64,000 nt of DNA from Vermamoeba vermiformis (taxonomy: Eukaryota), in the NCBI GenBank assembly GCA_045837725.1, contig JBEWZL010000227.1:186001-250000 (forward strand), written 5' to 3'. Below are positions 1,890-64,000 of the stretch, in pieces. Each line of letters begins with the position of its first letter. Positions within the stretch are counted from its first letter, which is position 1. Both the position numbers and the translations under genes were made by a program. Under the pieces are notes generated by a model. That model worked only from the letters and a program-made list of their open reading frames with translations, made no database searches and had not been told where the DNA came from.

Positions 1890-2155
1890 ACTTTTAAGTT
1901 TGAAAGATTTGATCGAGGGTTAGGGTTTGCATCCGGTACAAAATAAGATCTACATTCCAATGAACAACGACATGAAAGATTACGGCTCCAAAAATAGGCT
2001 ATAACCAATGCAAGTATATTAATTTAAAAGGAATATTTAAAAGTACGGTCTAATATTTATTTTTGACGAGAGCTTTGGTTACAAGATCCGCATCCACGGC
2101 GCGAATCTTAGTTTGACGTAAAATGATGTGCCAAAGTTCTATGGGTAGTATCGTA

Positions 2156-5891: not shown

Positions 5892-6006
5892 TAATCTATT
5901 TGTTACTATTGTTGCTATTGGTTTGGACCGGAAAATAAAAAGAAATGTTCGGAGCTTGGCCACGATGGTTATTTTTAAAACCCCACGGATCAATTTACAA
6001 TCCAAT

Positions 6007-7158
6007 TTACAAATAATATCCTTGTTTCTCCATAAGATTTCCGTGTCCAGATTCGTCATAATCATAGCGAGTAATCCAAAAATGATTGCGCCAAAACGGT
6101 TGTGCTAATAACATCGAAGCTCCTCTAAACGTGTTACAGGTTCTACATTCTGCGCTATCTTTTCTGAATCGTATTGTGTTACTATATTTAGGTGCAAGTA
6201 GTCCAAGCTCTTTTGTAAGTCGCGGAACAATTCCAGGAAGTTTCGTGTTACCCCCTGAAAGGACGATGTTTGAATATAATTCGCTATGAATACTAGGCTC
6301 GCACTTTTGAATCGTTGTATGTATCATCTTGTGAACGCCATCTCTTTCAAGACCATATAGTTCCGGCTGGAATATTATTTCGTTGTGTTTGAAAATATCG
6401 TGGTGAAACTGCCAGATCTGACCATCAGCAAATTGGTACTGAAAATTGACTTCATCGTTACTTTTTTTCATTTCGCTATCATAATCTAGTGCTATATATC
6501 CGTGTTTCTCTATTATATCGTTGAGCATGTTTCGTTGTCCGTAAGAATCGTAAGATCCACGACCACTGTCAGTCAACGACTTCGCGAAGGACCCTAGAAT
6601 ATCCTGACGACCTATATCGAGTGTGACTAGGGAGGATAATATGCCCTTGCCGTCCTTAACAGCCATCGAGAATGTAGTCTGTCCGTCGGAGCATAGCACG
6701 ACGCCAGTACCCAAGCCAAGAGCACTGATCGCGGCACTCGCCGAATTCACAAAACACATTCCGGCGAGTTCTAATTCGCCAAATAAATATTCTGCTAATT
6801 TTTTACGAGTGTTTGAAGGTGTAGCTGGGTGTTCTATAAACATCAGTCCTGATTCGGCCGGATCGTGGCGAACTTCGTTGTACAAAGCGTGCCATAATAT
6901 CTTCTCCACAAATTTCCAGTTTGATACTATTCCTCTGGTAATAGGGAATTCCAACTCTTGCACGCCAACTTTGGATAGCGCTTCATCGCCAACGAAAACG
7001 TCTTTGATGCCAATTCCAGCGTTTATGTCTTGCTTGCGACTCGGAGGGTATCCGATGACCGTAGGGAATACATGCTCGGGTATTTCATCGGGTATTCCTA
7101 TTTTTGTGTAGGTTGAGCCAAGATCGATAATTAATGGGTCAAAAGTCGTATCTTCCAT
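6007..7158 (-). CDS. Divergent actin-like protein (paralog 1)
   Basis: Uninterrupted 383-aa ORF with IIDLGS..TKIG, VFPTVIG, DVFVGDEALSK, FPITRGIVSNW and LYSNIVLSGGNT. Confidence 0.9.
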   Translation of the reverse strand: MEDTTFDPLIIDLGSTYTKIGIPDEIPEHVFPTVIGYPPSRKQDINAGIGIKDVFVGDEALSKVGVQELEFPITRGIVSNWKFVEKILWHALYNEVRHDPAESGLMFIEHPATPSNTRKKLAEYLFGELELAGMCFVNSASAAISALGLGTGVVLCSDGQTTFSMAVKDGKGILSSLVTLDIGRQDILGSFAKSLTDSGRGSYDSYGQRNMLNDIIEKHGYIALDYDSEMKKSNDEVNFQYQFADGQIWQFHHDIFKHNEIIFQPELYGLERDGVHKMIHTTIQKCEPSIHSELYSNIVLSGGNTKLPGIVPRLTKELGLLAPKYSNTIRFRKDSAECRTCNTFRGASMLLAQPFWRNHFWITRYDYDESGHGNLMEKQGYYL

Positions 7159-7456
7159 ATCGATAATTCTGATTCTCTGTATTAGAAATAATATTATTAA
7201 CTTTTGAAAAATTACACCATCAGAGGGCAGCTAAATGCAACCTACGCTAAATAAATTCGGCGATCAGATGCCTGTAACGTTAGCTCGCAGATCCAAATGG
7301 TTGTCCTCACAAGATGTCTCTACCTCATGACATTTGTCACGTATAATTATGTAGGTAATGGTTCAATCGTGTCCACAAATGCAACAAAATTGACAAATAA
7401 AAATTTCTATTGGTTGAGGCCATTTACATCACAAGTTAATATTGATACCTCACATA

Positions 7457-8326
7457 ATGTCGAGTAAGTATATTTTAAGGATGGTTGTTTGAGAATTAAT
7501 TCTGATCTGTGAATTTTAGAGAAAGGTCCAATTACGATCTTGCTTCTCGGTTTGACAAACGCGGGAAAAACAACGATTCAATTCCGCCTAAAATTCGATG
7601 AAGTATGCACTACTATTCCAAGTAAGTCTAAGCTCGTTTGGTTCGAATTTGGATTCCAGCCACATCTAAAAATCTGTAAATTAATCAATCACGCTTTTTA
7701 TTGACTCGTACTAAAGTTATACTTATTTAATTAGCCGAGGGCTTTAATTTTCACAATCTCCAATACAAAAAAACGAAAATCGAGTGCTGGGATTATGGAG
7801 GCAGCAAAAGTGTTCAAGAGAAGCTTTGGCCTGAAGCAATTAGCAAAGCCAATGGAATATTCTGGGTAGTAGAAGCTAGTAATACTAGTACTATCAAGGA
7901 ATCGGTTGAAACGCTCGCTTCAGTCGTTGCGAAGTTGCCAACCCAAATCCCGATCTGCGTTTTAGCGAACAAATGCGATCTGCCTAGCGCTATGCCTGAA
8001 GGAGAAATTGTCGAGGAATTTTCAAGATTTCCTGCTGCCAAAGTCTTTCGGGTCAGCGCGATGGAGTCAAAAACTTTACATGCCGGTTAGTTTCGCTCCG
8101 ATCTGAATTGCAAAATTCTAAATTGAAGCTCCAAATTAATATATTTTTAAAGCATTGGAGTGGCTCGTGAACGAAGTTACTGGTAAGAGTAAAGACAAAA
8201 AGAAAGAGAAGAAAGAAAGAAAAGAAGGAAAAGAAGACCAAAAAAGACAAGAAAAACAAGGAAGATAAGAAAAACGAGGAAGTTGAAGTGAAACCAGATT
8301 TTAGCGGACTGAAATTAACGGATTAA
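7457..8326 (+). CDS. Divergent Arf/Arl-family small GTPase with a Lys/Glu-rich tail
   Basis: Four exons give MSKKGPITILLLGLTNAGKTT, TTIPTEGFN, WDYGGS, LANKCDLP, VSA, LEWL and a charged tail. Missed by the ORF track. Confidence 0.85.
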
Positions 8327-8737
8327 CACGAAGTCAAAATAAAATATCTTATGGATCACGAACCAACGTCGACCAGTTGATAGACACGGTCATTCCATGT
8401 AGAAAGTACGCAGCATACGTTCTGCTCCATTCGAAGATTTGAAGAGTACTAGCATGAGTTGCAGTAAGTAAGACATTTCGTCGGATCGTGGATCCTGATT
8501 TGCGCTCTCGTGGAATTCTGGTTTGTCGGTGCGGAACAACTATGTTGTTGATCAGATCTTAGTCGGACTTTCAAAATTATCGAATGAGCAAATTTCGAGT
8601 ATTAATGCCATGCACGTGCTTGTCGGGTGATAGTCCGGGCTCTATCTAAAAGCGACTTTATTTGCTCTGAGCTTTCAATGACAAAAAGATAAAATCGTAT
8701 AAATAACCTGTTATTAACAATACAGTTTGAATTAGTT

Positions 8738-9439
8738 TTAGTAGTAGAAATCGAGCTCAATGTGGTGACTTACGCCTCGGCTTTGGTACTCTTGCGTCAC
8801 CTTCTCTTGACGCAGCTGACTATGCTCACAATCGAGTTGAGCTGCAGCGTGTATGTAATTGAAGCAGTCCATATGACCGTTGCGCATTGCCACACGGCAT
8901 GCCTGACTGGTTAAGGCACATCCGGATTTGTGAGCGTACTTCAAGCATTCTAGTTGGCCACTCTCTGCTGCTGCTGTGCATGTCAATTCGTCCCACGGGA
9001 AATTTCGCTCATCGTGAAGATATTTAAGCACGTGGAGGTGACCATTTTTCGCGGCAGATGCGGGTACCATGCGATCCGCTTCACATCCGTTCTCTATGGC
9101 ATATTTAAGAATTTCCAAGTGTCCTTTTTCAGCCGCAACTATCGTAGTGTGTTTATCCCATTGAGCACCAATTTCTCGCCAATAGATCAAGCCCGAAAGT
9201 TGACCTGTGGACGCGAAATAACTACAGAGAGTATTTCTTGCATTAGAAAAATCTTCATTAGCTGGTAATGGATATAAACTGGTGTATTTTTTGCATATTT
9301 CGTTTAATTGTTTGGATGTACGTCTGATAAAAACGAGTTGGATTCTGATCTCCATCTCGATGCCTATTTGGGAGGCCACTTGTTGGTCAATTATATGCGA
9401 AAATATTTCTTTCCAAATATCACTACTGAGATTTTCCAT
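8738..9439 (-). CDS. F-box-like N-terminus + ankyrin-repeat protein
   Basis: Intronless 233-aa ORF. LSSDIWKEIFSHI is followed by repeats AAEKGHLEILKYAIENGC, AAKNGHLHVLKYLH and PWDELTCTAAAESGQLECLKYAH. Confidence 0.85.
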   Translation of the reverse strand: MENLSSDIWKEIFSHIIDQQVASQIGIEMEIRIQLVFIRRTSKQLNEICKKYTSLYPLPANEDFSNARNTLCSYFASTGQLSGLIYWREIGAQWDKHTTIVAAEKGHLEILKYAIENGCEADRMVPASAAKNGHLHVLKYLHDERNFPWDELTCTAAAESGQLECLKYAHKSGCALTSQACRVAMRNGHMDCFNYIHAAAQLDCEHSQLRQEKVTQEYQSRGVSHHIELDFYY

Positions 9440-9710
9440 AGTGTGCTTCTAAATGAACAAAATTAACAAAATTAAATCAGATGGCTAGATCCGGCGCTGC
9501 GCTTGGCCGAACATGTTAGATTACCTTTGCAACTTCTATTATTTAGTGCTATTATTTTGTTGCAATCAAATCGAGAGCTTCAAAACAAAACAGAAAAACG
9601 AAAACACGAAAATATTGAAACAATATTTTCGAAAATTGTGTGATCTCGACGATTTTCAGGAAATTTACGAGTTAGTACAATAGATAATCGTGTTACAACT
9701 CTTCGCGCTC

Positions 9711-31337: not shown

Positions 31338-33589
31338 ATGGAGAGCTCATTGTACTTCATCGATTTGCCCTCAGAGCTGATTTTTCAGATCGTATCTGGC
31401 TTTGAGTTTGATATTCGACACGTCATCAAACTTAGAGCGATCAATCGCGCTCATTACAAAGCATTCGATGTAGAAAATATTCTACAATTATATAAGCGTT
31501 ATCCTCAGCCAAAGGTTGTAGAATTGCAAAAAGGAAAGACTTTTTAGTAAGTGTAAAAATGTTAATTTCAATGCTATTTTATTTAAATTAATTTTAAAAA
31601 AATAATAGCACGCCGTATCATCGTGGTATGAACGAGATTCTCCTCGCATTAGTCAGACAGCTCGCGAAAACAATGACATGGCCACAAATCCGGAATAGTA
31701 CGTCGTTATTCTGCCTTTTTAGGATTAAAATTACTCTAATCGAATAAATATATCTAAATTAAATTATTGGTAATCATCAATTCAAATTTGTAAGGTACAT
31801 CCGAACTTGATCCGGAAATGGTTCCGACTTTTCTTTACTAACCGATTTATATTTATAGAAGTGGCAGAGTACGGAACTTATACGGGCGCTTATGACATAA
31901 GGATAGTTGCTACGTTAACAGCGATCAGATCCAAAAACAAGAACTATTTAACAGAGTTATTGGTGGATGCGCAGTTCGAAGCCGACATTAAAAAGAATTA
32001 TAGATTGAAGGCACTATATAACTGCGTTATGGAGCCTAATGACGAAGAATACACCAAGTTTATGTTCGCACATCCGATCATGGCAAAACACCTTGCTGAA
32101 GTAAGACTCAGTAGCAAATATCTTAGCGGGCTCATTGAGGATTATGTTATTGCCATAAAAGGCAAGCCTATCAAAATGGAAATTATTGCGCAGATTATTA
32201 TGTTATTCAAGCCTGAAGAACTAGCCAGCAATTATAATTGGATCCACGTCGTCACACACGCAAAGTTCGATATGAATATTATTAATGGAATAATGGCATA
32301 TTTATCACCGCCTATTCAGATCATTTACAAGGCACAAATCAAAAAATGTCCGGATTGCCTCTACAGCGCACTTTGTTCAAATTCTTTTGCAAGCTTATTA
32401 TCATTCTGGGAATACGGAGAATTGCCTACATCACAAGCATATTATATTAATGATGCTATAAGTCCTAATGGCTTAGAATGGCTGACAGAAAATATTCGAG
32501 TGGATTCGCAAGGCTATCGTCAAGGCTTAGAATTCCTGACTGGCGATACAGAAACGGAGAAACGAGTATTAATGCAAAGTTTATTACATGCTATTGATAA
32601 GAAGAAGAACGTCATATTCATCAATAACGACCATCTCGAGATTTTCAAAAAGTTAGCGGATCTTGGTCTCAAATTGCCTTTGTGCAGTGTATCTTGGCGC
32701 AAAATTATTGTAGACTCATGTTTATGCATGAGAGACCTATCGAAGATAATTGAAGTCGTTTGGTTGAAATTTCCGGATGTGATCCGAGAATTGCTACCCA
32801 GGATCTTAGTTTGGAGCATGGATATGCCTTATTTAGAATCAGTCGCCAACGAAATAATACAACGAAGTCCTAGCTCAATATTGAACGACTTAAAAGGCAA
32901 CCACTCTGGCTACACTCTGTTGCACGGATTCGCTAATAGCCTGAAAATGGTTACTAACACTCCGGGGCAAGTACTGAAAGTGATAGACTACCTTACAATA
33001 GGCCATGGTATGTTTATTATACTCAATTTATCATATTTTAACTATTCTATTGGCTGATTTAATTTTTTTTTAAGGCATCGATTTGAATACCTTGGACAAG
33101 CAAGGAAGAGCATTTTATGATTATTTCAATGATATTTGGCATCATAATGTGCCTATGGAGAATATCCTATTGTTCGAAGGACTATTAGATCGTGGTCTTC
33201 AATTCCGCTTGCATTCTGGACGGTGGATCTCGCCGTACTGGTTCAATCCTACCTTTCAACTAAATCCGCAAGCAAGGTGCATATCTATGGCTGTTAGAGT
33301 ACGGCCAAAGAAGTATCGTTGCATCGCTACAATTTCCTACGAATTTTTTGAAGGCGAGATCGCGGATTTAAAACTCGAAGCGAACGTTTTTTGGCATCCG
33401 CTTAAAATTCCAGACACAGAGCCTAGATATGTTAATATGGAAGTAATGCCTGGCGAGTATTGTTACCGTTGGATCATTAACTTTCAACCATTTGTTGATC
33501 CGAACTTGCCAATCGTTTTCTCCAAAGAAGGAGCGCAATACAATATTTTGATAGTACCAGAGAATGCAGAGGATAGTATGACATTATAA
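31338..33589 (+). CDS. F-box-like protein with a helical/ankyrin-remnant body
   Basis: IDLPSELIFQIV...IKLRAINR F-box-like start, followed by in-strand exons 31807-33057 and 33083-33589 with GYTLLH and DLNTLDKQGR ankyrin-like pieces. Confidence 0.65.
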
Positions 33590-33786: not shown

Positions 33787-34935
33787 CTACAACAGACCAA
33801 TAGGACACTTTGATTGGATTATTGAAGGGCCAGATTCGTTATATTCAGCTTTTGTGATCCAGTCAGCGAGATTCAAAGTCGTTGACAGCATCGATGCTCC
33901 AGTGAACGAGAGATCTCGCCGCAAATTCGGGTGAGGACCTGATTCGATCCTAATATGATCACTATACTCTGGTGCTAGTACTTTGAGCTCTTTGATCAGT
34001 CGTGCATCGAGTCCGCGTGTCAAAGAGTTACCACCGGACAGCACGATGTTGTTGAATAGTTCGCTCTGAATACTTGCATCACATTTCTTGATTGAACTGT
34101 AAATCATATGATGAATGCCGTCCTTTTCAATTCCGTACATTTCTGGCTTGAACAGAATTTCATTTTGAGTGAAAAGTTCGTGGTGAAATTGCCACACGGT
34201 GCCACTCGGATCTTCATAACTTGCTGCAACTTCATTCTCGGGCTTCTGCATTTCAGCATCGTAGTCTAGTGCGATATATCCGATCTTTTCGCGCATGTCT
34301 GCCACAATTTCTTGTTCAGCAGAAGTCGAGAACGAGCCCGGATACTTTGTTTCGATGTACTTTACAAGGCTGGTGCTAAGATCCTGAGCACCGATATCAA
34401 GTGTATTTAGTGTATTTATCAAGCCCTTGCCGTCCTTGACGACCATGCAGTACGTTGTCTGTCCGCCCATGCACAGTGCCACTCCAGTAGTGCGTCCAAC
34501 TGCCCTGATGGATGCGACACACGGATTCGCAAAGAAAAGTGCAGGCACGTTGAAATGTTCGAACATGATTTGTGCAGTCTTCTCGCGAGTATTTTTGGGT
34601 GTTAGTGGGTGCTCTAAGATCATCAGCGGATGTTCTTCAGGATCGCATCTGAGTTCGAAGTAAAATGAATGGTGCCAGATCTTCTGAATAAAATGCCAAT
34701 CTGCTATAAGTCCTCGATGAATAGGATATTCAATCACTAATACTCCGCATTTTGATAGCGCTTCGACGCCAACATAGCAGTCTCTTTGTCCCATCCCAAC
34801 CAAAATACCCGGATAAATATATCTTGGGTGTCCGACTAATGATAAGCACTCGGCATTAGGCTTATTATCACCTCCAAATCCAAGTTTTACTAATTGGGAG
34901 CCCAGGTCAAAGATGATTGGCCGAGGTTCGTCCAT
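33787..34935 (-). CDS. Divergent actin-like protein (paralog 2)
   Basis: Intronless 382-aa ORF with VGMGQRDCYVG, YPIHRG, ELRCDPEEHP, AQIMFEHFNVPA, FSTSAEQEIVADMREK, NIVLSGG and WITKAEYNESGPSI. Confidence 0.92.
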   Translation of the reverse strand: MDEPRPIIFDLGSQLVKLGFGGDNKPNAECLSLVGHPRYIYPGILVGMGQRDCYVGVEALSKCGVLVIEYPIHRGLIADWHFIQKIWHHSFYFELRCDPEEHPLMILEHPLTPKNTREKTAQIMFEHFNVPALFFANPCVASIRAVGRTTGVALCMGGQTTYCMVVKDGKGLINTLNTLDIGAQDLSTSLVKYIETKYPGSFSTSAEQEIVADMREKIGYIALDYDAEMQKPENEVAASYEDPSGTVWQFHHELFTQNEILFKPEMYGIEKDGIHHMIYSSIKKCDASIQSELFNNIVLSGGNSLTRGLDARLIKELKVLAPEYSDHIRIESGPHPNLRRDLSFTGASMLSTTLNLADWITKAEYNESGPSIIQSKCPIGLL

Positions 34936-35289
34936 TCTGTTGGATGTAACGCGTTACAAATCGAATCCTATTATTTCATTGAAGTATTAATAAGGAATTC
35001 AGCAGTAAAGTATTATTTGGAACTTTTTTTTTTAAGCGATCAAGAAATAATTGATTGATTAAATTGAGTGGTTTTCAATTTACTGTCCTGCATAAACTTA
35101 CTGATTCGCTTTATATTCCGAATTATACGGCCTTAATATCTAATTGTGATTTTGCCAGTGCTTGTGGTGACACGGAGCAAAAAGAAACAAAAACCAGTTT
35201 TGTTTGCATTTGAATTTGATAGCACGAAACCACGTTTCAAGTGCAATTCGGCATTAAATTAATACCATTATCGATAGCCCTAAGTGACG

Positions 35290-36992
35290 ATGAAAAAAAA
35301 GATGGAGGTAAAAATTCAGTTCATAAATCCGGATGTTAAATTTTATTTTGGTTATTCCTTCTCAAATAAATATTTGATTGGAATATATATCGTATTTTTT
35401 CCTAATATTTTAACTAATTTTAAATTGTGCAGATTGTCGTGCATGACTACGCGGAGCTTGAATTGAACCGCCTACAAAATAGAAAAAAATTCAGATTCGC
35501 TCCAACTTACGCTGCTGGAAATGGTTATATTCTTGAGTTATTTGGAGATTTTGACAATGCTAAGCTATTTATGGGAGCTTTAGAATTTGAAGATTGCCCG
35601 ATCAAACAGATCAAGTTGTCCGGGCGCAAAGATCCGGAAGAAAATCAATTTTCGTCAACACTGAAGGACATATCACCAGCTGGAGGAAAAGATAATAAGG
35701 CAGAATATAAATCACTCATTAAAAGGGCGATCAAAAGCTTGCAGAAAAATAGATCTATTACCTCGCTTATCATTGGTGGCCAATTTGATGGTTTATTCTT
35801 GGAAAATTTATCGGATCTGATCAGCGAAAGAATTAATGAAGTCATGGTGGTCTGTGGCAATATTGTGCCTTTAATCAAAACTGATGTGGTCGACACTTTA
35901 AAAATATTATCAACGAAGAAGCATATTACCAAATTAGGAATTGACTTACAAGTTACATCCGTACATTTCGATATGGATCAAGAGGAAAATATCCGCAATA
36001 GGCATAGCGAAGTTTTAAGCAAATTTCCTAATTTGGAATCGTTCAGGATGAAGATCTACGAGTTCATTTTTTCAATGCGAGTTGTTCAAGTATTGGCCAG
36101 ATCAAATAAGAAGTTACTAAATTTGGAAATTTCGATGAGAGAACTTCACAGACCTTACAGCTTCCCGAGCTTTTTTGAAAAATTTGAAGATTTAATTATG
36201 GCTAATCCTAATTTGGAAAAAATCACGATGGATGGTTTGTTCAGTGAAGTAAATCGACCTCAATTGCAAAGTTTCGCTGAACGAGTGGCATTTTGTCCGA
36301 ATTTGACGTACCTGGATCTGTCTAATAATTATATTCCTCTCGGAGTATTATCGGACATTTTAACCAACGCAAAAAACCTCAAAACTTTGGTGGGTCAGAA
36401 CTTGGTTTTGCACGATAACAACGATGACGATGAAACTGCGAAGTTTGTGGAGGTTCTCAAACACAATAATTCACTGAAAACGATGGATTTCAATAGAACT
36501 GCATTGTCTATTTTCAACGGCATCGCAGATGTGCTCAAAAATAACTCGACTTTGCAACGGATCCGCTTTAAATTGGCATCGCGAGTACCCAATGACTACA
36601 AAATCATATTAGACGCACTTAAATATAACACTAGCATCAATAGTTTTACTTGCAAATGTTTGGCGTTTGAACGGCCGCATGTGTCGGAAGAAATTTTCAA
36701 CGAAGTTACCGCTTGGGAAAAACAAGTAATTCTGCATAACAAGAATTTACGGGAATTTAACGATTACGATGCCGAACTGCGGCCCAATCGAGAACTATTC
36801 CTCAAACAAAAGATAGCCATCTGTTCGTTCATCAAAATGTTTGCTAAAAACACAGCGGGATTTACGAACTATTTACCGATGGAAGTGTGGCTTAGAATAG
36901 CCAAGTTCATGAACGCTCCTGGCTTGCGTAAAATCGATCAATTACTATTGGAGACTTTACAAAGCAACGAACGGCCAGCCCGAAAAGTCTAA
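35290..36992 (+). CDS. RNI-like LRR protein with a C-terminal F-box-like module (tandem copy 1)
   Basis: Short first exon MKKKME plus a 521-aa exon containing NLTYLDLSNN, LKHNNSLKTMDF and YLPMEVWLRIAKFM. Confidence 0.85.
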
Positions 36993-37345: not shown

Positions 37346-38969
37346 ATGAAGAAGAAAACGGAGGTCCAGGTAACGTGGATTAACACTCAAAAATCTTTAT
37401 TGTCAAATTTTATTTGAAAAAACATAGAAAAGGGGTTAAAATATTATTACGTAGATTGTTGAATCGCATATACAATTATGGAAATGCCTGGAAAAAAAAA
37501 GAAAATTCAGATTTGGATTGGGCGAGTTTGCAGAGCGCTTTACGCCTAATTTATACTTCAAAGCCGAAGATAAATTAATTCTCGACGCCCTAGCATATGA
37601 AGATTGCCCGATAAAGAGCATCAAGCTGTTTGGACATAAAGACCTGTCAAAGAGAGCCTACAAATCCGTTGTCAACAAAGCTATTCAAATTCTGCCTATT
37701 AATACGTCAATTACATCGCTTACAATTGGTCAACTGACAGATAATTTTTTGACAATTTTACCGATGCTGATCAGCCCAAAAATAACCGAAGTCGACATCC
37801 ACCCGGTGAATCCTCCGGAAAAACTTACAAATGTAATTACTATATTAGACATTCTATCAACGAGGAAGCATATCACTAGATTGGGCATCAATATCGACGT
37901 TTATCCTTCTACACACGAACTGAGGAAACTGATCGAGCCATTGAAGAAATTTCCTAATTTGGAATCGTTTAAATTTGTATTGGCCAACTCATCAATGCCC
38001 CTGTTTGGACTTTTCGTTCTCCAAGTTATGGCAAAGACGATGAAGAATTTACTAAATTTGGGAATTTCATCTCGGGGCAGGATCTATCAATCATTCGAGG
38101 AAGAGTTTGTTTTCAATGGACTCCGAGGATCCTCCGAGTTTTTTAACAGCATCAACGAGGCACTATCAGCTAACCCAAATTTGGAAAAATTAACAGTTTG
38201 CTGTTTTTTCAATGAAAACTATCAGCTGCAATTACAAAGTTTCACTGAACGAGTGGCACTCTGTTCGAATTTAACGTACCTCAATATCTCCCACAATACT
38301 ATTCCTGGAAAAGTCTTATTGGCCTTGCTGACGAACTTGAAGAAGCTCAACACTTTAATATGCTGTACTTGCGTTTTGACATTTAGTGACACCGAGGATA
38401 ACAGTGAGGATAGTGACTACGACAAGCTTATGGAAATTCTTAAACGCCACAATTCACTGAAAACGATGGATTTCACTGAAACAGTTATACCTCATAGACT
38501 GCTCAAAGAAATCTTAAAATGCAATTCGACGGTAAATCGGATCAGTTTCCAAGTTGTGTGCAGCGTTGAAAGATACAAAAAGATATTGGAAGCATTGAAG
38601 TATAACACTAGTATCACTAGTTTTAAATGCCACCCAGTAATAGCGGACATTTCAAAAGATGAACGGAGCGACTGCCGAAGATTGGAACAGCAAGTTATTT
38701 TTCATAACAAGAATTTACTGGAATTTAACGATTACGACAGCGAAATGGAGTCAAACAAAGCCCTATTTATCCGCAACAAGATATCAATATCAGCATTCGT
38801 CAAAATATTCGCAAAAAGCACAACTACGTTCACGAATTATTTACCGATGGAAGTGTGGCTTAGAATCGCCAAGTTCATGAACACTCCTTGCTTACCTGAG
38901 GTCGATAAATTACTATTGGAGGCAGTACGATCTTACGAACAAAAACAACCAAGTTCAAAACACAATTGA
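37346..38969 (+). CDS. RNI-like LRR protein with a C-terminal F-box-like module (tandem copy 2)
   Basis: First exon MKKKTEVQ, then a long exon clearly paralogous to copy 1 (EDCPIK, ANPNLEK, HNSLKTMDF, YLPMEVWLRIAKFM). Confidence 0.85.
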
Positions 38970-42682: not shown

Positions 42683-44053
42683 TTACATGTCTTGTTGTTG
42701 TTGCTGTTGCCTTAGCTGAGCTTCTAATTTCCTCTGCCGCCGTCTAGACAAAGGCACAAAAAAAATAAAATTATAAAATTATTCGCTACAAAGCTAGTTG
42801 AAATTGAATATACTATTATAGTAGTATTATAAGCAATAACACGTACCTGTCTAAATAAGTAAATGCAAAACTTCCTCCAACAATCGCTGCTGAAAATCCA
42901 GCCATATATTTAGAAGCCTAAAGCATTATAAAATATTATTAGCATCGTATTATATCGATTTGTAACGATAACGCCCGAAAATTCAAAAGCAGATCTAACA
43001 TCCAGATCCGCGCCAACGGCAGGCGAATAGGGATATTAATGATATGGTAGTACATGTATAATATACATAGTGACTATCTATAATAAGCTATTTAGAGTTT
43101 GTTCAACACGTACCGCGTGTCCAAAATCCTTCTTCATAAACATCGCCACAAAAATCGGGACCATCGGCGTCAGTGTACCTGCTGCAATACCAACAGCCGC
43201 GTGCTTGCCTAATAAGGAAATATTAGCAATGAAGCTTTGCAAATGTTTCTTTGTCTCGTTGCCGCAAATAGTGTTTTAGTCACGTTGAAAATTTTTACCT
43301 TCAGGCAAACTAGCAATGCAATCTGCAACTGAGTTACCAACACCTGCTCCTACAATAGGCCCGAATCCCTATAATTTAATATTAGAATTGAAATCAAAAG
43401 CGGATCTGGTCGGCAAAAATTGTTTCTCGATCGGGATCTCAATTTAAATTTGAATATATCGTGTATATTATAATGAACGTACTCTAACACCTAGTCGTGC
43501 AGCAAAAAATGAGTCCAATGAAAAGCCAGTTAATATGCCAAGCAATAGCAGTGATTGATCCACCAAACCAAATCTCAAAAATCGTTTGAAATTGTCATTT
43601 TGCGTGAAACCAGATGTGCTATTTCGTATTTTTCTAAATAAAGTATTGTTAATAGTGGTTTAATTGCCAAAAAGCCTGGAATAAGCGCTCTTCGTGGATC
43701 TGATGCGCAAAATAAATTCATTATTTCATCAATATTAATTATTTTGCTATATTCAAACGTTCGACAATATTTAATGCAACAGAATGGCGATATTCACAAA
43801 TTATAATATCAAGCTGCAAATTAAATTATTTAATATCACTGTTGCAAAATAATACTGGACGTCCGTAAATCGCAAAATTATTATTTAGGCCATACAATTT
43901 ATAGAATAAATTCAAGATATTTTTTGCGCGCATTTGTAGGGCGTAATGAACGCAGTTAACTCACTCGATGAATCCGCCTTCTTGTTTGGGATCTGTTGAA
44001 GTACTATCCTCTATTGTATTAGATATAGGTGGCTTTTCTTGTACTTTATCCAT
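42683..44053 (-). CDS. Small multi-pass membrane protein, TMEM65-like
   Basis: About six small exons give RFGLVDQSLLLLGILTG, GPIVGAGVGNSVADCIA and further hydrophobic helices. The pattern resembles TMEM65 (GFxDN...GNxxSD). Missed by the ORF track. Confidence 0.6.
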
Positions 44054-45120
44054 ATTATATTACACAATGTCGTTCTGGTGGTCAGATCGAACAGAAAGAT
44101 AAACAGCAGAAATTTATGAACGGCGAAACGACGGAAGGACGAAAAGAAACCAGGTCAATTTTTTGGTGACCGGCACCGTGTAAAAAGCAATTGGTACCGT
44201 TCTTTTGAAATTTCGCTCGATAAATTTATCCACTACCGCTGCCTGGTTATTTCCCGGTTTAATAATTCTAAGAAGTGGGCCTGTTGACCAATAAATTTTG
44301 CTGTTACTACGATAACATCTCACCACCACCACGGCATTAATTTATTTTTATTATTTATTACATCTGGCAAAAAAATGACACAGATCAACGACACTGATCA
44401 GCGTGTGCGCATCAGCTCAAGCTTTTGTGAGCGCCTAAAGGTTTTATATGACCAATATATGTTTACTCCAGGTGCCAAAAGACAAAAACGGACCTTCTAA
44501 GACATCGAGACAATTGGAAGGCAACAGCAAACCTATTTACCTAGGTATGTTTGTTCGCAAATGGAATAAAATAAATTCCTTATAACAATAAGACACGAAG
44601 AATGTGCCTAGCACAGACCATGTGCCTAGCCCAAAGAAAACCTAAGGACCTTGGAATTCAATAAAGCAGCAGACGAAAAAAGCGAAATAGACGATAGAAT
44701 CCATCCGTGGCAAAATATTTCAAAAAGGCACGCACAGAAAAAAGAATAAGGAAAAAGAGTATTTTGCAAAAGACGCCCACGCATCCACCACAACGGAATG
44801 GGGAAGAAAAACAAAAAATGAAGAACATTGAAGAAAAATAGAAGGACCCTGAACGATTTGATTGCAAAAGATGAAGGCTAATATCAGATCACGTTATTGG
44901 CAATTTATCAAAGAATCGAAAAGTATTAAAAAGCATGAGTAAATTTGCATTTTATAAGAAATGTATTTTTTCCTTCTTTTCTGTTCATACTCTGCCCATT
45001 CCTGTTTCTTGTCAGCAAAGAACATTTTCCCACGATTGCTCTCCATTTCCAAGAACAACCATTCTAATCTTTCCATTCTTCCATGCAAACTCTTAAACCA
45101 TTCCTGACCAAGCAATGAAG

Positions 45121-45200
45121 CCCCGCCCGAAAACCCCCCCCCCCCCAACAACCCCCCCCGCCCAACCCCCCCCCCCCAAGACGGCCCCCCCCCCCCCCCG

Positions 45201-45255
<55 letters not shown>
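45121..45255. repeat. Poly-C / poly-G low-complexity tract, possibly a sequencing or assembly artefact
   Basis: About 135 nt of almost pure C flanked by noisy A-rich sequence. Confidence 0.9.
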
Positions 45256-45256
<1 letters not shown>

Positions 45257-45401
45257 ATTTTGAAGTGCCGTTGAGGAGAAAAGAAGAAAAAAAAGAGAGA
45301 GACCAAAACCTATGTTGGCCGTAAGAAGCATACGCCCAATGGCGGATTCCCGGGATGTACTACGCATTATTTTAGATAGTAATTATTTTTTTATTTTAAA
45401 G

Positions 45402-45833
45402 GTCGACCGCTTTTACGAGTCAATGCACCCTCCACTTATTCGACTCTAGTCCGCGCAAATCAACAATGGCCGACCAATTTGAGCCCGTGCAAAAGCTACA
45501 AATCAATTGCATTGAATTTGGACGGCAAATCGAAGTTTCATCTGGATCACTTGGACTATTTTGATGGTAGGCGGCAACAGAACTGTAATCTTAATAACCA
45601 AACGGTTATTTATAGGATACTGTCTTGTTATTCCATTTGGAAAGTTTACTGGTGGCGATCTTGCCTTTCCACAGATCAGCACAGCTCTTCAAGCGAAGCG
45701 AGGCGATGTGGTGTTATTCCATTCAGCGCAACTAGTGCATGGTAACTTGGATAATATAGGTGGCAATCGTCGCTCGATAGTATTTTTTACTCATGATGTA
45801 TTAGTACGACCGTACATCAAAGTTACCAAATAG
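45402..45833 (+). CDS. TET/JBP-family 2-oxoglutarate/Fe(II) dioxygenase, catalytic exons (5' exons unresolved, possibly starting near 44376)
   Basis: Removing intron 45567-45615 gives SIALN..KFHLDHLDYFDGYCLVIPFGKFTGGDLAFP..GDVVLFHSAQLVHGN..RRSIVFFTH, which contains HxDxxD, the distal His and RxSxVxFxH. Confidence 0.8.
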
Positions 45834-46208
45834 TTCGATCTGAAAAATTGATCTCCAAAGTTTGCAGCTCGTTCTTTATTACAAACCATCATCAACCAAT
45901 AAAAAACACATTAAAATGCTTCGCAAGAACCATATTTTTAACTATGCATAACTAATTGTATTACAGCCACTGTCATCAATTTAAATCTGCGGTTGAATCC
46001 ACAGTAGCACTTTTTCATCACACCACGAGTATGAAATTAAGAATATAATATATACGTGGGTAAGCGTAGTTATTGTGATATCATTTAGCACGGTGAGACT
46101 TTTGAATATTTGTAAGTGTGGTTTTTCATCGCGGATCACCGAAGAAAAGAGCTTGATCTTCGCTTTAACATAAATTTATTGATTAAAATACTTTAAATTT
46201 GTAATACA

Positions 46209-46757
46209 CTATATTCTATTTCCTTTAAATTGTCCATCGATAATATTTCCTCGCCATTTATCAACTTTGAACTGAATCGTGATCTCCTGTGCGTGCCAGT
46301 TATATTTGAGAATAAATGGGACCCTCCAGTTCACTGCTGTCATTAATAATGAGAAATCACTATCAAATCCTACACAACCGGCTTCAAGAGTTGGTAAAAA
46401 GTTTCTGATCGCGGCCGTGTCGAAGCATTTGTATGTGGTAATCAGCATGTAGTCCGTGTTAAAAATTCTTCTGCGATTTTTTTGAAGGGTGTAGGTTATG
46501 TTGTTCTGTAAGCTCTTACTGAGGGGTACGTGGAGGATGCGTTTGAAGATCGTGGTTAGCAGGCCATCTTTAACTTTCAGCTGAGAAACAAGTGAATCTG
46601 GATGCATAGCCGCAGAAATAAATGCATCGAGACGAATGGAGGCATCCTCTTCCTCGTAGGTTCTCCCCTCAATTTTGATCACGGGGATTTGGTCAACATA
46701 TTGTTTTAATTGCGCTAATCGATCTGCCTTTAATCTCCGAAGTTGTCTTGCATCCAT
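46209..46757 (-). CDS. Hypothetical protein, intronless
   Basis: 182-aa ATG ORF with globular composition, preceded on the minus strand by CCAAT and TATAAA. No family recognised. Confidence 0.65.
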   Translation of the reverse strand: MDARQLRRLKADRLAQLKQYVDQIPVIKIEGRTYEEEDASIRLDAFISAAMHPDSLVSQLKVKDGLLTTIFKRILHVPLSKSLQNNITYTLQKNRRRIFNTDYMLITTYKCFDTAAIRNFLPTLEAGCVGFDSDFSLLMTAVNWRVPFILKYNWHAQEITIQFKVDKWRGNIIDGQFKGNRI

Positions 46758-47166
46758 TTTAAATATATATACGCTTGAGCTGTGGTATTCATTATGGCTG
46801 GTGTGCGTTTATTTATAGGATTGGTCCGCAGAATTTTTTGGCCGGTTTTTTTCGTTTTTACACGGTTCTACGGGCGGACGATTGACCTGGCCGAGAATTG
46901 CGATTAACCTATTACTCCCTTTGAAAGACATTGTTACGCAGCTTAGAACCGCCACACGAAGTTACCATACTACGTTTCAGCAACAGTTACTTTTTCTGCT
47001 GATCCACAAGCATTACAGCAGCGAAGACTACGGTTATATGCGGCTATCTATGCGAGAATATTTATTGAATTTCACGGAGAAAGAAGACAAAGCAGGTCTT
47101 ATGTTTCTCTCTTTATCAAATTGATACTAAATATTATTACAAACAATTACATAATTATAGCTATTT

Positions 47167-48585
47167 TTAAACATTATCAACGGCATCAACGATCCTCGCG
47201 CTAATTCTCGCCTGATTCTTTCGCATTTCATCGACTTCGTCAACTGTAGTCTCGAAACTAGCTCCACAAGGTCTCGTTAACTTCTTAATATACGCTGTTA
47301 ATGCATATAGCCTTGACAACTTGGCTTGGTGCGTTCTATCGGGATACATCCGATTCCATAGGGCATTACACCAGGCTATTTTTATCGTCGCTATAATTGG
47401 TACCAAAAACGATAAGCAGCCCACAGCTACTGCAGCAATGAGCAATGGATTCGTTTGATCGAAGCTAAGGCACAATGACAGTAATATGACGAATGCTGTC
47501 GCTAAAATTGGCTCGAGTGTGGATGCTGCTTCAGCGGAAAGTTTGAACGGCTCGAAAAAGAACGGACGAACGCAAAGTACGATGCGTGCTAGTGTTGGAT
47601 AGAAGCATACTATTTGCAAGATCATAAAGGCTAGGAAAGCTATAGAACAATACACGAATTAGTGCGACATCCACCGATCGAGAATTCGTTAAATTCTATT
47701 ATTCGAACAGATAGAAAGATTCAACCTCTCAAGATTTCCATAAACGAAAGGAGGGTTGTAATTTCATTTTTAAGAGGTAAGAAGGAAAGATCAAAAGAAG
47801 TTGGGTCGGATCTCGTCAAACGTACCGTGCTGGAACGGACTGTCTTTGAAGTTGTCCAATACGAATCTGCCGTAAGTGAGCAGTATCATAACATACTGCG
47901 CGATATTGATGGACACCCAAAAGATGTAAAGCAAAGAAACCTTCGCTTGCGTCGATCCAGAAATGTAGACGTCTCCAATGTGCGTGCATTTCTCCTCTGT
48001 TATCGGAAAAGGAAGTATTAGGTACATTTGCAACGATTATATTATCCGATAATTAGAAGTAGACAAAATTACGACGAAATTTGGTTGGAAAGAACGCGGA
48101 TCCCGTTCCGTTTGTGCAACGAAATGGCCGCGTTCGCTTCGGACATTCATGTGAAGCGTTATTGATAAATAAATATTATATCATCTTTAATTTCGATAAA
48201 GGCCGCATTTTTCGACTGGATTTGAATTTTTCATAAGAAGCCAATAAAAAATAATCTTTACGTGCGCAAAGAACGTACCTATTTTTTTCCTCTCCTTATC
48301 TCGTTGTAATCTCCGCTTAATTGTCCTCTTTAATACGTGCAGAGAATCAAGGGAATCGTCCCAGCATAAGCCATAGAAATGTTTGTTGACGAATTGCACG
48401 CGGGTCAAGGACTTGGCGTCTAATAATTGGAAAATATAGATGGATATTTCCGGCGGGAGGTACTGTTATGCACGAGATAGTTAATTTTAAGTGAGTTTAA
48501 CGAAAATTACAAGATCGTTCGGATCGAGCAAAAGAGTACTTGCCTGCCAGTAATTGTCTGCTTTAGATAACCCAATAGGCTCCAT
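47167..48585 (-). CDS. F-box protein, possibly joined to downstream multi-pass membrane exons
   Basis: MEPIGLSKADNYWQ|YLPPEISIYIFQLLDAKSLTRVQFVNKHFYGLCWDD is a clear F-box. Same-strand hydrophobic exons lie at 47791-48033 and 47167-47655. The middle splicing is uncertain and this could be two genes. Confidence 0.55.
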
Positions 48586-59716: not shown

Positions 59717-62201
59717 ATGTTAATACGCTCTACTATAATGTTGCTGATCGTTGCGCTGTTGCAACTTAGCCTTAGTTGTAAGTAGATCTCCTGATTAGGG
59801 AATCTGTTTCTTTACTAAACCTGGTTATTTTATAGCAATGGCTCAGCCTACAATTAAGACCGCCTGGGAACAAATTAACGAACTCAGCGGCAGTTTTTAT
59901 CTTAGTGGTAAAACCGAGCCAAGAGTTGCAACTTTTTCGGATGGTCGTTATGTTGTTGTTTATACGGTCCAAACAGCTGGTTCTTATTATAATGCGGTCG
60001 GCAAGATTTATAATGGAGATGGAACCGTATATAAAGCTGAATTTGCTTTGGCTGATAATGTTGCGGCTAGTGATATACATCAAGCTCCAAACGTAGTTAT
60101 TTTCGAAGATGATTCGTAAGTACCTTCAATAAATTGCTTTCAATAAGTGCTAATAATTGCGTAATGTATAGGTTTTTGGCAGTTTGGAGATACGTTAACT
60201 CAGATCCGGATCAAATTAAAGCCAGACGGTTTAATTCTGACGGAACAGCCGCAGGTGCCTCGTTTAATGCTTACGACTCCAATATTAGTCCCTCTTCTGG
60301 TGTAAGCCATTTAATATTATTAAGATTCGCTCACAGAATCAAGGCACGTGATCTGACAGCTATCTTTAGAATTCAATTGAAGTTGTTGCAACTCGATTAA
60401 ATGGCTTTGCTATGGTCTATTCAGCTGCTAGTAGTTGTACTGGTGCTGCAGTGGTGCAATTCGACGCTAACAACAACCAGATCTTTTCTCAATGTTACGA
60501 CTCTGGCACCCTCTCCGTATGTTTTTAATTTACTTGGAAAATAGTATTAATATGATTGAGTATAGGACCCAAAGGCTAGTTTAGTATACGATTCTTATTC
60601 AACAAACGTGTTTTTCTCTCATGAAACGGATTCGGGAGGTTTGCTCGTTGGTGGAGTTGGATCTGACGCCTTAAATCGCTACAGTCAGAGATTTGCATTT
60701 TCTACGGTTGATCCTATGACTTTATCGGAGCCTTCCATTCTTGTCAATGCTCAAGACTCCATGTCAATTTTCTCCGTTGCAAGCAACTCGATCTATGGTA
60801 ATGTCATAGTTTTTCCGCCATTCACTGAAGCATTATTTTATAGCTTTCAGCGTCATTCCACCTCTCCCGGCTCCTGGAAGTGTCAGACAAAATCTTTTTA
60901 AACAAAGCACTACTTCTATCTTTTACTCAAGTCCTCGAACTGTCCGGATCAGCGATGTTAGTACTCTCGTCGCATACAGACTGACAAATATCAATACCAA
61001 CACGAAATATATCGGATGTAAGTAGGCCATATTTATATATACTTAAGGTGCTAACGCCGAGTAGATCAATTGGCGAGCTACACTCCATCCAGCGGACAAA
61101 TTATTGTCGCCCCACTGGGCGATGAAATCACAGGTAAGCAACGATGAAAATTTATCACTTTCAGTTATTTAACAAACAGCGTTCAGCTCAATCCAATATC
61201 GTTGGCTTGTACATGACCGTGCTTCCCAGATCTTCAGAAATCGTGATGGTCGGCAAAGACACTTCGACCCTCGCTGTTATGAGACAGGTTTTGACTTTCT
61301 GTGGCAACGGTGTGCTTGATATGGAGGAGGAATGTGATGGCAGTGCCAACTGTGACACGAACTGCAGATGTTTGGCTGGTTTCTACGGCTTCAATGGCGT
61401 CTGCACGTATCCCAATGTCGAACCTTCGTTGGATTGCGTTGAAGTCCGACAGACCGGATACGTCGTTTATTTCAGTTTTAACAACCGAGATGCTGTTGAT
61501 CATAACATTAACTACGGTTTGGTCAATTATTTTGCTCCAGAAAATTTGGCTGTAAGCAGATCCCGATCCAGATCTTGACCGAGAATACTAATTGAACTGT
61601 TATGTAGACCGATCGTCCTACGCTGTACCCTAGCGGTCAATCGCTTATATACCCTGCATCTCCGTATAGTACTGCCGTGCCTTTCTCCATTTCAACTATC
61701 ACGTGGCAGTTAGGCTCGTACAATTTGACCGTTGATGTCACAGATCCACACGTCTGACACTTTTGACACTTTTGACACTTTGACACTTGAACGCTAATTG
61801 CTTGCTTTAGATCGCTCTTCAGTGACTATAAGAACACTACTAAACGAGCCCAAATTGAATCTGATCTCGTGACTGGCACTCCTGGCACCGTCATCAAAGA
61901 AGTGACACCTGTACCTGGTGGCACCGAAGTTCGCGGTACTCGATCAGATCCGAACACGAATCCACGCACTCCGTCTGGCACTATCACGCCAATCTCAAAT
62001 CCGTCAGATGGACCATCAAGTACCAACCCTGGCTCACCTTCAAGTACCAATCCAAACACGCCGTCCGGTTCTAACCCAAACAATCCGAACTCGCCTGGTA
62101 CTTCCCGAGGACCTGACTCTGCATTGACATCTTCTGCTTCATTAAGTCAAATTTTGTTGGCCAAGTTCTTGTTACTGGTCGTCAGCTTTTTACTTGTTTA
62201 A
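59717..62201 (+). CDS. Secreted/GPI-type surface protein with CGNG..EECD cysteine-rich and EGF-like module, apparently broken near 61755
   Basis: Signal peptide MLIRSTIMLLIVALL, FCGNGVLDMEEECDG..CRCLAGFYG, a Pro/Ser/Thr stalk and a hydrophobic tail. In-frame TGA at 61755. Confidence 0.75.
61755..61790 (+). repeat. (T)TTTGACAC tandem repeat
   Basis: tgacac ttttgacac ttttgacac tttgacac ttga. Related arrays occur at 11701-11731 and 17412-17435. Confidence 0.85.
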
Positions 62202-62281: not shown

Positions 62282-64000
62282 CTAGTTCGCGATGAAAGAG
62301 TACAAAATCGTCGCTGCAAAGATAATCAAGCTTTGCGGTCCGATAGTGTTTGAACCTGAAACGGCTATTGGGGTGTTGGACACAGGCGGGGCAGTAGGAC
62401 TGGCGACTGGGCTGGCAGGAGGGCTGGGTGAAGAGTCATATCGATTGCCGCGCACTTCAACTCCTGTTGGCGTTGGTGTGATGTTTTTGATGTTCGTGTT
62501 GGGATCGTAGCCTTGCAACAAGTCCTCGTCAACCTCCGTGCTGTTGCGCTTGTAATCTCCGACTGCTGATCTGTTAATGAAAATCAACGTCAGAACGATG
62601 TCGCCAAAAAATGACATGTTGACACGTGTCACTTTAGAATTTTTTCGCGCTTGTATCTGAAAACGATCATAATGCTTCAAATCGGATCTTAGTCCGATTA
62701 TGATTCCGGTTTGCATATGACGCGTGTCAAAATAATCAAATTATCTTACTGAACGGCTTCGGCAGGAGTTGGTTCTGAAGCTTCAGTTTCATCTAAAAAG
62801 CTACTATTAAAACGGTACAAAAATGAAACGGCCCTGGATCTTGTACGTACTAGCCGGTGCAATGGTAACAATGACGTCATATCTATTGTAATTGGTGGCC
62901 CGTTTTGCAGGAAGAGGGCCGGCAGTTTGAATCGCTTCAGTCGTCAATCGATCAACAGAAATGTTGTACCTGCATAATGATCCTTAGACACTTGTTGTTG
63001 AAGACCGGACATTGCTTACCTTCGCGCAAAGTTGTTCCCGAAGACGTTTCCGTTATCAAGGTAACCTGGTGTTATAACGTCCTCAACGAAGCCAAGAGCT
63101 AATGTGAGATTTTGTTAGTAAAAGATATCACACGTCTGTCCGCAAGTTTGACGTACATGTCGGGCACAAGACGGCAGTAATGTTCGTCAAATCGACGGTC
63201 AAGTTGTACGAGCCGAGGACCCAGTTGATTTGAGTTACAGTTGTAGGGATTGTCGTGACATAGGGCGAGAGAGGATACGTCAGAGTTGAACCAACGGCGA
63301 ACTGTTGAGGTCGGTCGGTCTTTTCATAAAAATAATGTGTTAGTACGGTCGTTAGCAACGTCTTCTGAAAGGTTCCGTGAAATTTCCGACAAAAGACTTA
63401 CAGCAAGGGTGCTAGGTGTAAACAAGTTTGCATTGCCATGTTGCAAGGTCTGAACAACACTATCTTCATTGATAAAGCTGAAGTGGAGATTGTAACCGTT
63501 GTTCGATGTTTCAACACAATCGAGCACAGGCACCACATTTGGCAAGCCGCAGGTACCTTGATATCCAGTCAAACCATACAAGCAGCGACAATTAGCACCA
63601 CAGTTGGCACCTCCGTCGCATTCCTCGTTTAGTTCGAGTTGACCGTTGCCACAGAACGTCAAAACTTGTTGCCAAATGTCACCTCTCAGAGGATTTTTGG
63701 CGACAACTAAAAGATCACCACCAAGCATTGGAACGAATCGCAAATAATGCAAATCGCTGGCAACTAGGTATACAACAGATTAATAAGAGTTAACGTGTAA
63801 TAATCGAAAGTCGTACTGGAGTACTGGATCGGGCTTGCAGAAAATGCCGTAAGTTCGCCATTGAAGCTATAAGTACCAGTGTGATCTGAATATGGTTAAA
63901 ATTTTAAGAGTTGAAATGAAATTTCATGTTTTACGTACAAGCCAAGTGAAAGGAGTTGTCGCTGATGTTGGCATAACGGTAGGCGATAAATGTGCTCACG
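62282..64000 (-). CDS. Paralogous secreted/GPI-type surface protein, 3' part
   Basis: QVLTFCGNGQLELNEECDG..CRCLYG..PNVVPVLDCVE, W.LGSYNLTVD, a PASP stalk and a hydrophobic tail. Convergent with the 59717 gene. The 5' end lies outside the window. Confidence 0.8.

Follow-up and report, generated by a model that had tools for sequence, protein, structure and literature searches.

Composite promoter elements can be common to co-regulated neighbouring genes, and P and Ac/Ds elements carry subterminal binding sites in addition to terminal ones. Both arrangements are relevant to a segment of 2.7 kb in a 64,000-nucleotide stretch of Vermamoeba vermiformis DNA (assembly GCA_045837725.1, contig JBEWZL010000227.1, positions 186,001 to 250,000; hereafter the window), in which two exact sequence blocks recur in inverted orientation on either side of a TET/JBP-like dioxygenase gene and a convergent open reading frame (ORF) for a conserved protein of 182 residues, ORF182. 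With a probability of about one half, the blocks represent a composite promoter element under conservation, located at the 5′ boundary of each of two transcription units that are regulated together. A promoter element is an ordinary kind of thing, although this one is unusually well conserved.

In fungi, TET/JBP genes are carried by DNA transposons of the Kyakuja/KDZ, hAT7, IS3EU, PHISTA, EnSpm/Plavaka and Helitron1 groups, according to the available text of PMC12730594. In the literature searched, TET-carrying transposons are described only for fungi, and the term Amoebozoa is absent from that text, supplementary tables aside. The dioxygenase of the window is closest to fungal Tet_JBP expansions, and the segment shares 5′-CA..TG-3′ ends with Kyakuja and the CMCT clade as they are described there (PMC12730594). 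In contrast, the fungal elements of the same account encode a transposase, make target-site duplications (TSDs) of 2–8 bp and form multi-copy families, whereas the segment displays neither transposase nor TSD and belongs, at low copy number, to an amoeba-like eukaryote; Kyakuja is also devoid of terminal inverted repeats (TIRs), whereas the segment has inverted ends (PMC12730594). Non-autonomous TIR elements, be they similar to miniature inverted-repeat transposable elements or cargo-carrying, resemble the segment in their short TIR, in a further inverted block located some 15 nt inward and in the lack of a transposase gene, but the segment shows no TSD or evidence of many copies, and spans 2.7 kb with two expressed genes. 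As a protist enzyme of the TET/JBP family with an HxD...H...R core, the window protein can further be likened, by description only, to NgTet1 of Naegleria, an enzyme of about 300 residues and the only protist TET enzyme discussed in the accessible part of PMC12344493; Naegleria, however, belongs to another supergroup, and the nearest relatives of the window protein appear to be fungal.

A proposed composite promoter element upstream of two convergent genes

The window was compared with assembled contigs of X1, a DNA run of the same sample, and with a 10.5 kb metagenome contig (L001), the sole related locus compared, which encodes an ORF182 homologue with 64% amino-acid identity. The features under discussion, in window coordinates, are the following.

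44150–44159, plus strand: left outer block CCAGGTCAAT, exact; an X1 contig with a different flank joins at 44151 (CAGGTCAAT)
44175–44186, plus strand: left inner block ACCGTGTAAAAA, exact, 15 nt past the left outer block
44220–44229, plus strand: left TATA-like sequence ATAAATTTAT, 33 nt past the inner block, with a putative core promoter role
44376–45833, plus strand: TET/JBP-like gene, with its presumed start at the first ATG past the motifs
46209–46757, minus strand: ORF182, conserved 182-residue protein convergent with the TET-like gene, supported by homologue clusters and by a contig of the RNA run X5
46808–46817, minus strand: right TATA box TATAAATAAA, 37–38 nt past the inner block; its form in L001 is TTTAAATAAA
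46855–46866, minus strand: right inner block ACCGTGTAAAAA, exact; its L001 counterpart is ACCGTGGACAAA
46881–46890, minus strand: right outer block CCAGGTCAAT, exact; the similarity to L001 and the alternative junction in X1 both stop at 46889

An exact search corroborated what a first-pass annotation, made from the sequence alone, had reported, namely that the inverted blocks are exact and in the same order, with spacers of 15 nt on the left and 14 nt on the right that are mutually unrelated in sequence, and that they bracket a TET-like gene, now assigned to TET/JBP by its homologues and its HxD/H/R residues, together with an uncharacterised convergent ORF. Beyond both blocks no similarity was detected between the left and right ends of the segment, and the 64-kb window holds no further copy of CCAGGTCAAT or ACCGTGTAAAAA without mismatch. 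When the two words were combined into one pattern (at least 6 of the 9 positions of CAGGTCAAT, a gap of 8–22 nt, then ACCGTG), matches with the full 9/9 were confined, within the window and L001, to the two segment ends and a single L001 site. The motif patterns had no match in the viral_contigs and genome_contigs collections, and Rfam gave nothing at E ≤ 1 over 43900–47200. A hairpin formed by the two blocks was also considered, and was rejected on its z-scores (−0.05, +1.25 and −0.61).

The blastn alignment of L001 with the window begins at L001 position 9605, which corresponds to window position 46889 and thus to the first base of CAGGTCAAT, and runs to the end of the gene with 69.6% identity overall, coding region included; outside this motif-to-stop segment blastn detected no similarity between the two loci. 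Between the motif and the ATG the two sequences agree at 105 of 132 aligned bases, and the distance from motif to ATG is the same in L001 as at the right end of the segment. The conserved part of L001 comprises CAGGTCAAT-N9-GTAGAACCGTG, an A-rich/GGCC portion, TATAAATAAACGCACA and the sequence around the ATG. The 135-nt region upstream of ORF182, TATA box included, is about 80% conserved despite a protein identity of 64%, and, as judged from the alignment, the element on the ORF182 side is conserved in both position and sequence upstream of the homologue. The database protein P0007 (219 residues), which exceeds the other members of its cluster by 37 residues, carries an N-terminal extension of this length that matches the in-frame translation of the L001 upstream region (WTNE, RP, GYHT, IFKMD) and corresponds to L001 9629–9739. 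The start of P0007 was mis-called, its extension being the translated conserved promoter, and the ORF182 upstream region is in this way also preserved in a third lineage.

At the left end of the segment the blocks display the same order and spacing as at the right, with ATAAAT located 33 nt past the second block (37–38 nt at the right end), and the succession of block, block, TATA and ATG has the appearance of composite promoter anatomy. As in the composite promoters of co-regulated neighbours, two exact boxes keep their order and spacing, stand before two adjacent genes at a fixed distance from a TATA-like box, and are conserved in the promoter of a distant homologue. The proposed element would consist of CAGGTCAAT, 14 or 15 nt and ACCGTG(TAAAAA), sitting 33–38 nt upstream of a TATA-like box at both ends, with the first ATG 97 nt away in the case of ORF182 and 189 nt away in that of the TET-like gene; the transcription start and the TET-like start codon are putative parts of this model. 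One factor, or a pair of factors, may bind both promoters and co-regulate the TET/JBP-type dioxygenase with the 182-residue protein, and the blocks would look inverted because the two genes converge. The element would be the most distal constrained part of both promoters, so that similarity to paralogous or orthologous loci would stop at its outer base. If this is true, the element ties a TET/JBP enzyme to an uncharacterised family restricted to Vermamoeba-like amoebae, and offers a starting point for identifying a partner or pathway of DNA base oxidation in an organism that hosts giant viruses.

Taken alone, the inverted repeat is weak and statistically borderline evidence, and is unconvincing because simulated windows often give equally long bipartite pairs. 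In windows simulated with an order-2 Markov model and searched for bipartite inverted pairs (each block 9 nt or longer, spacers of at most 40 nt, arms at most 6 kb apart), the two blocks together came to 22 nt or more in 28/100 cases in one set and in 27/150 in another, and the real window itself has two other 22-nt bipartite inverted pairs, both in AT-rich DNA. These figures are what can be said for mere coincidence, in which functionless left blocks would match a conserved ORF182 promoter by chance. Such an explanation is nevertheless highly improbable, given that the strict form (both blocks of at least 10 nt, spacers differing by at most 1 nt) occurred in only 2/150 simulations, that the blocks are G+C-rich in a window of about 40% G+C, that order, spacing and TATA-like distance are alike at both ends, and that the left outer block is the exact departure point of an independent DNA contig. 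In a post hoc test of each word singly, two matches per word were found in 0/100 shuffles. The departures of the X1 contigs, together with the promoter similarity to L001, indicate that the blocks are not a product of chance.

Departures from the window at the outer bases of the repeat

One X1 contig opens with 53 other letters and agrees with the window from 44151 onwards; a second matches it up to 46889 and continues with 30 other letters. X1 record 4 also ends exactly at 46889. Each alternative junction is represented by a single assembled contig, and both have T/A at the positions where the window has C/G. The 30-nt loose ends of the two junctions match nowhere in the window with up to three mismatches; inversion, fold-back chimera and local rearrangement were rejected as their source, the loose ends being absent from the window. 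No joint skipping the segment was seen. The depths of the X1 contigs are 619.8, 705.3, 773.3 and 776.4 inside the segment and 597.1, 619.1, 476.4, 633.7, 574.8 and 602.3 in the flanks, so the excess inside is at most modest and not a doubling. Repeats of 1–10 bp that could represent a TSD were found neither in the window, at either choice of terminus (left ...GAAAAGAAA(C), right (G)CCGAGAATT), nor, should these belong together, between the alternative flanks (...GGAGATTTT and ACCACGTG...).

Within L001, the alternative right flank aligns best to 125 nt beside the L001 motif, with a score of 22 that is reached by 21/2000 shuffles. This likeness is a weak lead, because the alternative left loose end also scores 22, at unrelated places in L001. 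The alternative right contig may derive from an L001-type ORF182 paralogue in the same genome, with similarity ending at the motif as it does in L001, and its L001-like flank would weakly favour a paralogous promoter over a new insertion. Separately, an X1 contig has a 13-nt loose end resembling an Illumina adapter directly before 46915, at a distance of 25 nt from the right motif on its outer side.

Several observations weigh against a shared promoter element. At precisely 44151 and 46889 the X1 contigs pass from the window into flanks that are unrelated and absent from it, and the promoter reading needs a paralogous locus that shares each end's own spacer at an identity of at least 90%. The somewhat higher mean depth inside the segment would fit an extra copy, modest as the difference is, with overlapping ranges. 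Unlike the composite promoters of co-regulated neighbours, the motif pair precedes no other gene in the 74.5 kb searched (the 64-kb window and the 10.5 kb of L001), no regulon being apparent, and factor binding is here putative. The promoter reading would also require that an ancient element of the ORF182 type was gained by a TET gene specific to one lineage, and in public data no close TET relative was found alongside ORF182 relatives. The first codon of P0007 is an ATG that falls within the ACCGTG core, at a place where L001 reads CCG, which suggests that the core has changed in that lineage; the inner block is 12/12 identical between the window ends, yet 9/12 in comparison with L001. Finally, no transcription start was seen, as the X5 contigs span coding parts only and two further RNA runs that carry the same species name (X14 and X16, 90–95% alike to the window in the left neighbour gene) are without listed read starts.

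The same departures are central to the proposal that 44151–46889 is a mobile cassette, the chief rival reading, which we regard as unlikely, if still worth serious consideration. The segment would be a non-autonomous DNA element without TSD, with CA..TG termini and bipartite TIRs made of a terminal block of 9–10 nt and a subterminal 12-nt site, carrying the TET/JBP gene and ORF182 and moved by an enzyme encoded elsewhere. The passage of X1 contigs into unrelated flanks exactly at the outermost base of either repeat, the end of record 4 at 46889, the T/A for C/G at both alternative junctions, as if from one other copy, and the depth slightly above that of the flanks are all in keeping with it, but each alternative junction is one assembled contig, no TSD of 1–10 bp is visible in either context, the repeat itself is within chance expectation, and the alternative right flank resembles that of L001, which points to an old locus passed on by vertical descent. 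The segment has nothing in common with L001 outside the motif-to-stop region, and synteny is absent; nevertheless, the conservation of 80% over the whole 135-nt upstream region, TATA box included, looks promoter-like. Mobility is further favoured by a TET gene without close public relatives, as accessory DNA would be expected to carry, and by the absence of X14 and X16 reads of at least 90% identity for either gene, bar a 33-nt core, whereas the low copy number and constant length of the ORF182 family speak against it. The nearest TET relatives belong to fungal expansions known on DNA transposons, many of them with CA..TG ends, but the fungal TET genes are argued not to be non-autonomous transposons themselves (both points from the available text of PMC12730594).

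The segment encodes no transposase, and transposase families of Pfam were absent from nine large ORFs of the window at E ≤ 0.001 and from six nearby ORFs at E ≤ 0.01. In common with class II TIR elements it has exact terminal inverted repeats (10 nt terminal and 12 nt subterminal); no KDZ transposase lies by the TET gene and no TSD of 7–8 bp is present, as the definition in the available text of PMC12730594 would have it for KDZ. The segment was not filed as a transposon because two defining features of class II and KDZ elements, a TSD and a transposase, were looked for and not found. The mobile-element reading advanced by the first-pass annotation is supported in part: the sharp departures at 44151 and 46889 speak for it, whereas the conserved promoter region, the L001-like flank, the low-copy ORF182 and the lack of an accompanying TET relative speak against it; other copies with boundaries at CCAGG...CCTGG, which it had looked to, amount to one contig per end, and multiple copies were not found. 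Its observation that no TSD or transposase is visible held for repeats of 1–10 bp and for the scanned ORFs, and frequent occurrence of the motif pair before ordinary genes, which it had named as a sign against mobility, was not seen in the 74.5 kb searched. The shared promoter module that it had mentioned as an alternative has become the more likely reading, and predicts the upstream conservation over 135 nt with its TATA-like box.

If the mobile reading were true, TET genes would travel on mobile DNA outside fungi without a TSD or a known transposase, which bears on the spread of TET enzymes between eukaryotic lineages. A more specific and slightly more doubtful version is an undescribed class of amoebozoan mobile cassettes devoid of TSD, in which CA..TG ends are combined with bipartite inverted termini that also serve as promoters, and whose cargo here is a fungal-type TET/JBP dioxygenase with the conserved 182-residue protein as its partner; if true, this would be the first TET-carrying mobile element outside fungi, seen in two contexts within one culture.

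Structural polymorphism or segmental duplication without dedicated transposition is a distinctly improbable third explanation, according to which the alternative junctions would stem from a second haplotype or copy in a putatively polyploid amoeba, with the same two genes in rearranged surroundings, and breakpoints would fall at the motif because homologous promoters undergo recombination or gene conversion only up to that point. The occurrence of the junctions within the same sample, the merely modest difference between inside and flank depths and the mosaic divergence of X5 around the right end (a divergent 704-nt neighbour against 654 identical nucleotides) are compatible with such an origin, but symmetrical breakpoints at both sides are not expected of random rearrangement, and no segment-skipping joint was seen.

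The dioxygenase gene, ORF182 and their expression

The TET-like gene is readable only in part, over about 130 C-terminal residues (45392–45833), and no ATG lies between the left motifs and its presumed start at 44376. Its internal features are as follows.

44430–45389, no strand: unreliable assembly inside the TET-like gene, indicated by X1 DNA contigs and a poly-C tract
to 45566, plus strand: readable exon with the HLD motif, from colinear alignment to homologues
45567–45615, plus strand: putative intron of 49 nt, GT..AG
45616–45833, plus strand: last exon with the H and R motifs; stop codon at 45831–45833

A HMMER search of 1.84 billion representatives returned 255 homologous representatives at E ≤ 1e-3, the best at 6e-12 with 49% identity, and the ten best matches, with 44–52% identity over about 63 residues, include Glomeromycota and chytrid names; the named homologues come from Acaulospora, Rhizophagus and Rhizophlyctis. 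All 10 full-length homologues scanned match Tet_JBP, 6/10 of them above 34.9 bits. The last exon matches Pfam PF12851 Tet_JBP with E-values of 1.5e-4 to 1.9e-4 (21.5 and 21.2 bits), below the gathering cut-off of 34.9 bits, only a fragment having been scored. The HLD, VHGN and RRS motifs of the exon to 45566 and the last exon are in register and colinear with six homologues. Homology and the predicted catalytic residues thus place the gene in the TET/JBP family, and its nearest relatives appear to be fungal Tet_JBP proteins, not heterolobosean ones. A search by word index in two length classes of public data gave no close TET relative.

The N-terminal half of the gene was sought by tblastn with 17 homologues, and no match was found upstream of 45494. 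This is probably an assembly problem and not a truncation. X1 contigs give no cover at 44429–44609 and 44972–45333; a contig over 44610–44971 has 11 listed insertions of 1 or 2 nt and an 82-nt skip relative to the window; a degenerate poly-C tract of about 145 nt lies at about 45120–45265; and left of 45389 the X1 contig differs from the window sequence. The assembly fault at 44430–45389 breaks the reading frame throughout the gene's 5′ half, and the 2.7 kb length of the segment is therefore uncertain. Under either reading, promoter or mobile, the public assembly contains an error within the TET gene, and this stretch needs re-polishing ahead of any annotation.

ORF182 has six homologue clusters with 54–64% identity, all of 182–184 residues, one of which is a Vermamoeba vermiformis transcript; the clusters hold 1–3 member sequences each, and 1–7 contigs in the five with a contig count. 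It behaves as a low-copy cellular gene of constant length. Neither ORF182 nor its six homologues belong to a Pfam family (best E 0.036), no sequence relative of ORF182 was found in the PDB (best E 0.56), and an AlphaFold2 model from seven sequences, with a mean predicted local distance difference test score of 45.8, was too poor for a fold search; the ESM Atlas returned only unnamed bacterial clusters, at 0.89–0.90. The viral_contigs and genome_contigs collections contain no ORF182 relatives, and no match other than L001 came from viral, prokaryotic-genome and metagenome collections.

In L001, the ORF182 homologue is located head-to-head with a PARP gene (WGR, PARP_reg), about 260 nt apart. 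The L001 neighbourhood is composed of chromatin and DNA repair genes, without synteny to the window; it includes minus-strand ORFs at 5957–9478 and 2115–3490, and SNF2-helicase and PAH (Sin3-like) ORFs lie beyond the PARP gene. A TET C-terminus was not found in the 250 nt available downstream of the L001 homologue.

X5 was recognised as an RNA run by spliced contigs of both neighbour genes. Its contigs match the window without mismatch at 45635–45822 (TET-like gene) and 46250–46715 (ORF182), are exon-only over both segment genes, and none lies between the two. X14 and X16 reads of at least 90% identity fall, among the segment genes, only on the 33-nt ORF182 core at 46341–46373; in our own reading, their loose ends on both sides of this core resemble the gene of L001, which suggests that a second, L001-type member of the ORF182 family is the one expressed in the X14/X16 strain.

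X5 is identical to the window over both segment genes (654 nt) and over the left neighbour (124 nt), and its contig for the right neighbour gene (47108–47997, minus strand) differs at 25 positions and by 3 gaps over 704 nt. These variants do not occur in the DNA run X1. Identity and divergence thus form a mosaic around the right end, and the change from one to the other falls between 46715 and 47108.

Other features of the window

The window is eukaryotic, with about 40% G+C, spliced genes, two actin genes and one F-box/LRR gene. The actin-family ORFs lie at 6007–7230 and 33787–34953, both on the minus strand, with E-values of 6e-61 and 5e-84 against Pfam Actin, respectively, and three large ORFs (31774–33057, 35424–36992 and 37455–38969) have no Pfam family. 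The longest bipartite inverted repeat of the window (15 + 12 nt, spacers 31/31) lies within two inverted paralogous ORFs at 61144–61578 (plus strand) and 63324–63752 (minus strand). This 27-nt pair, at 61297/63656, was rejected as an instance of the same phenomenon as the segment ends, and represents the coding similarity of the two genes, which share the Cys-rich sequence QVLTFCGNG..EECDG.ANC..NCRCL.

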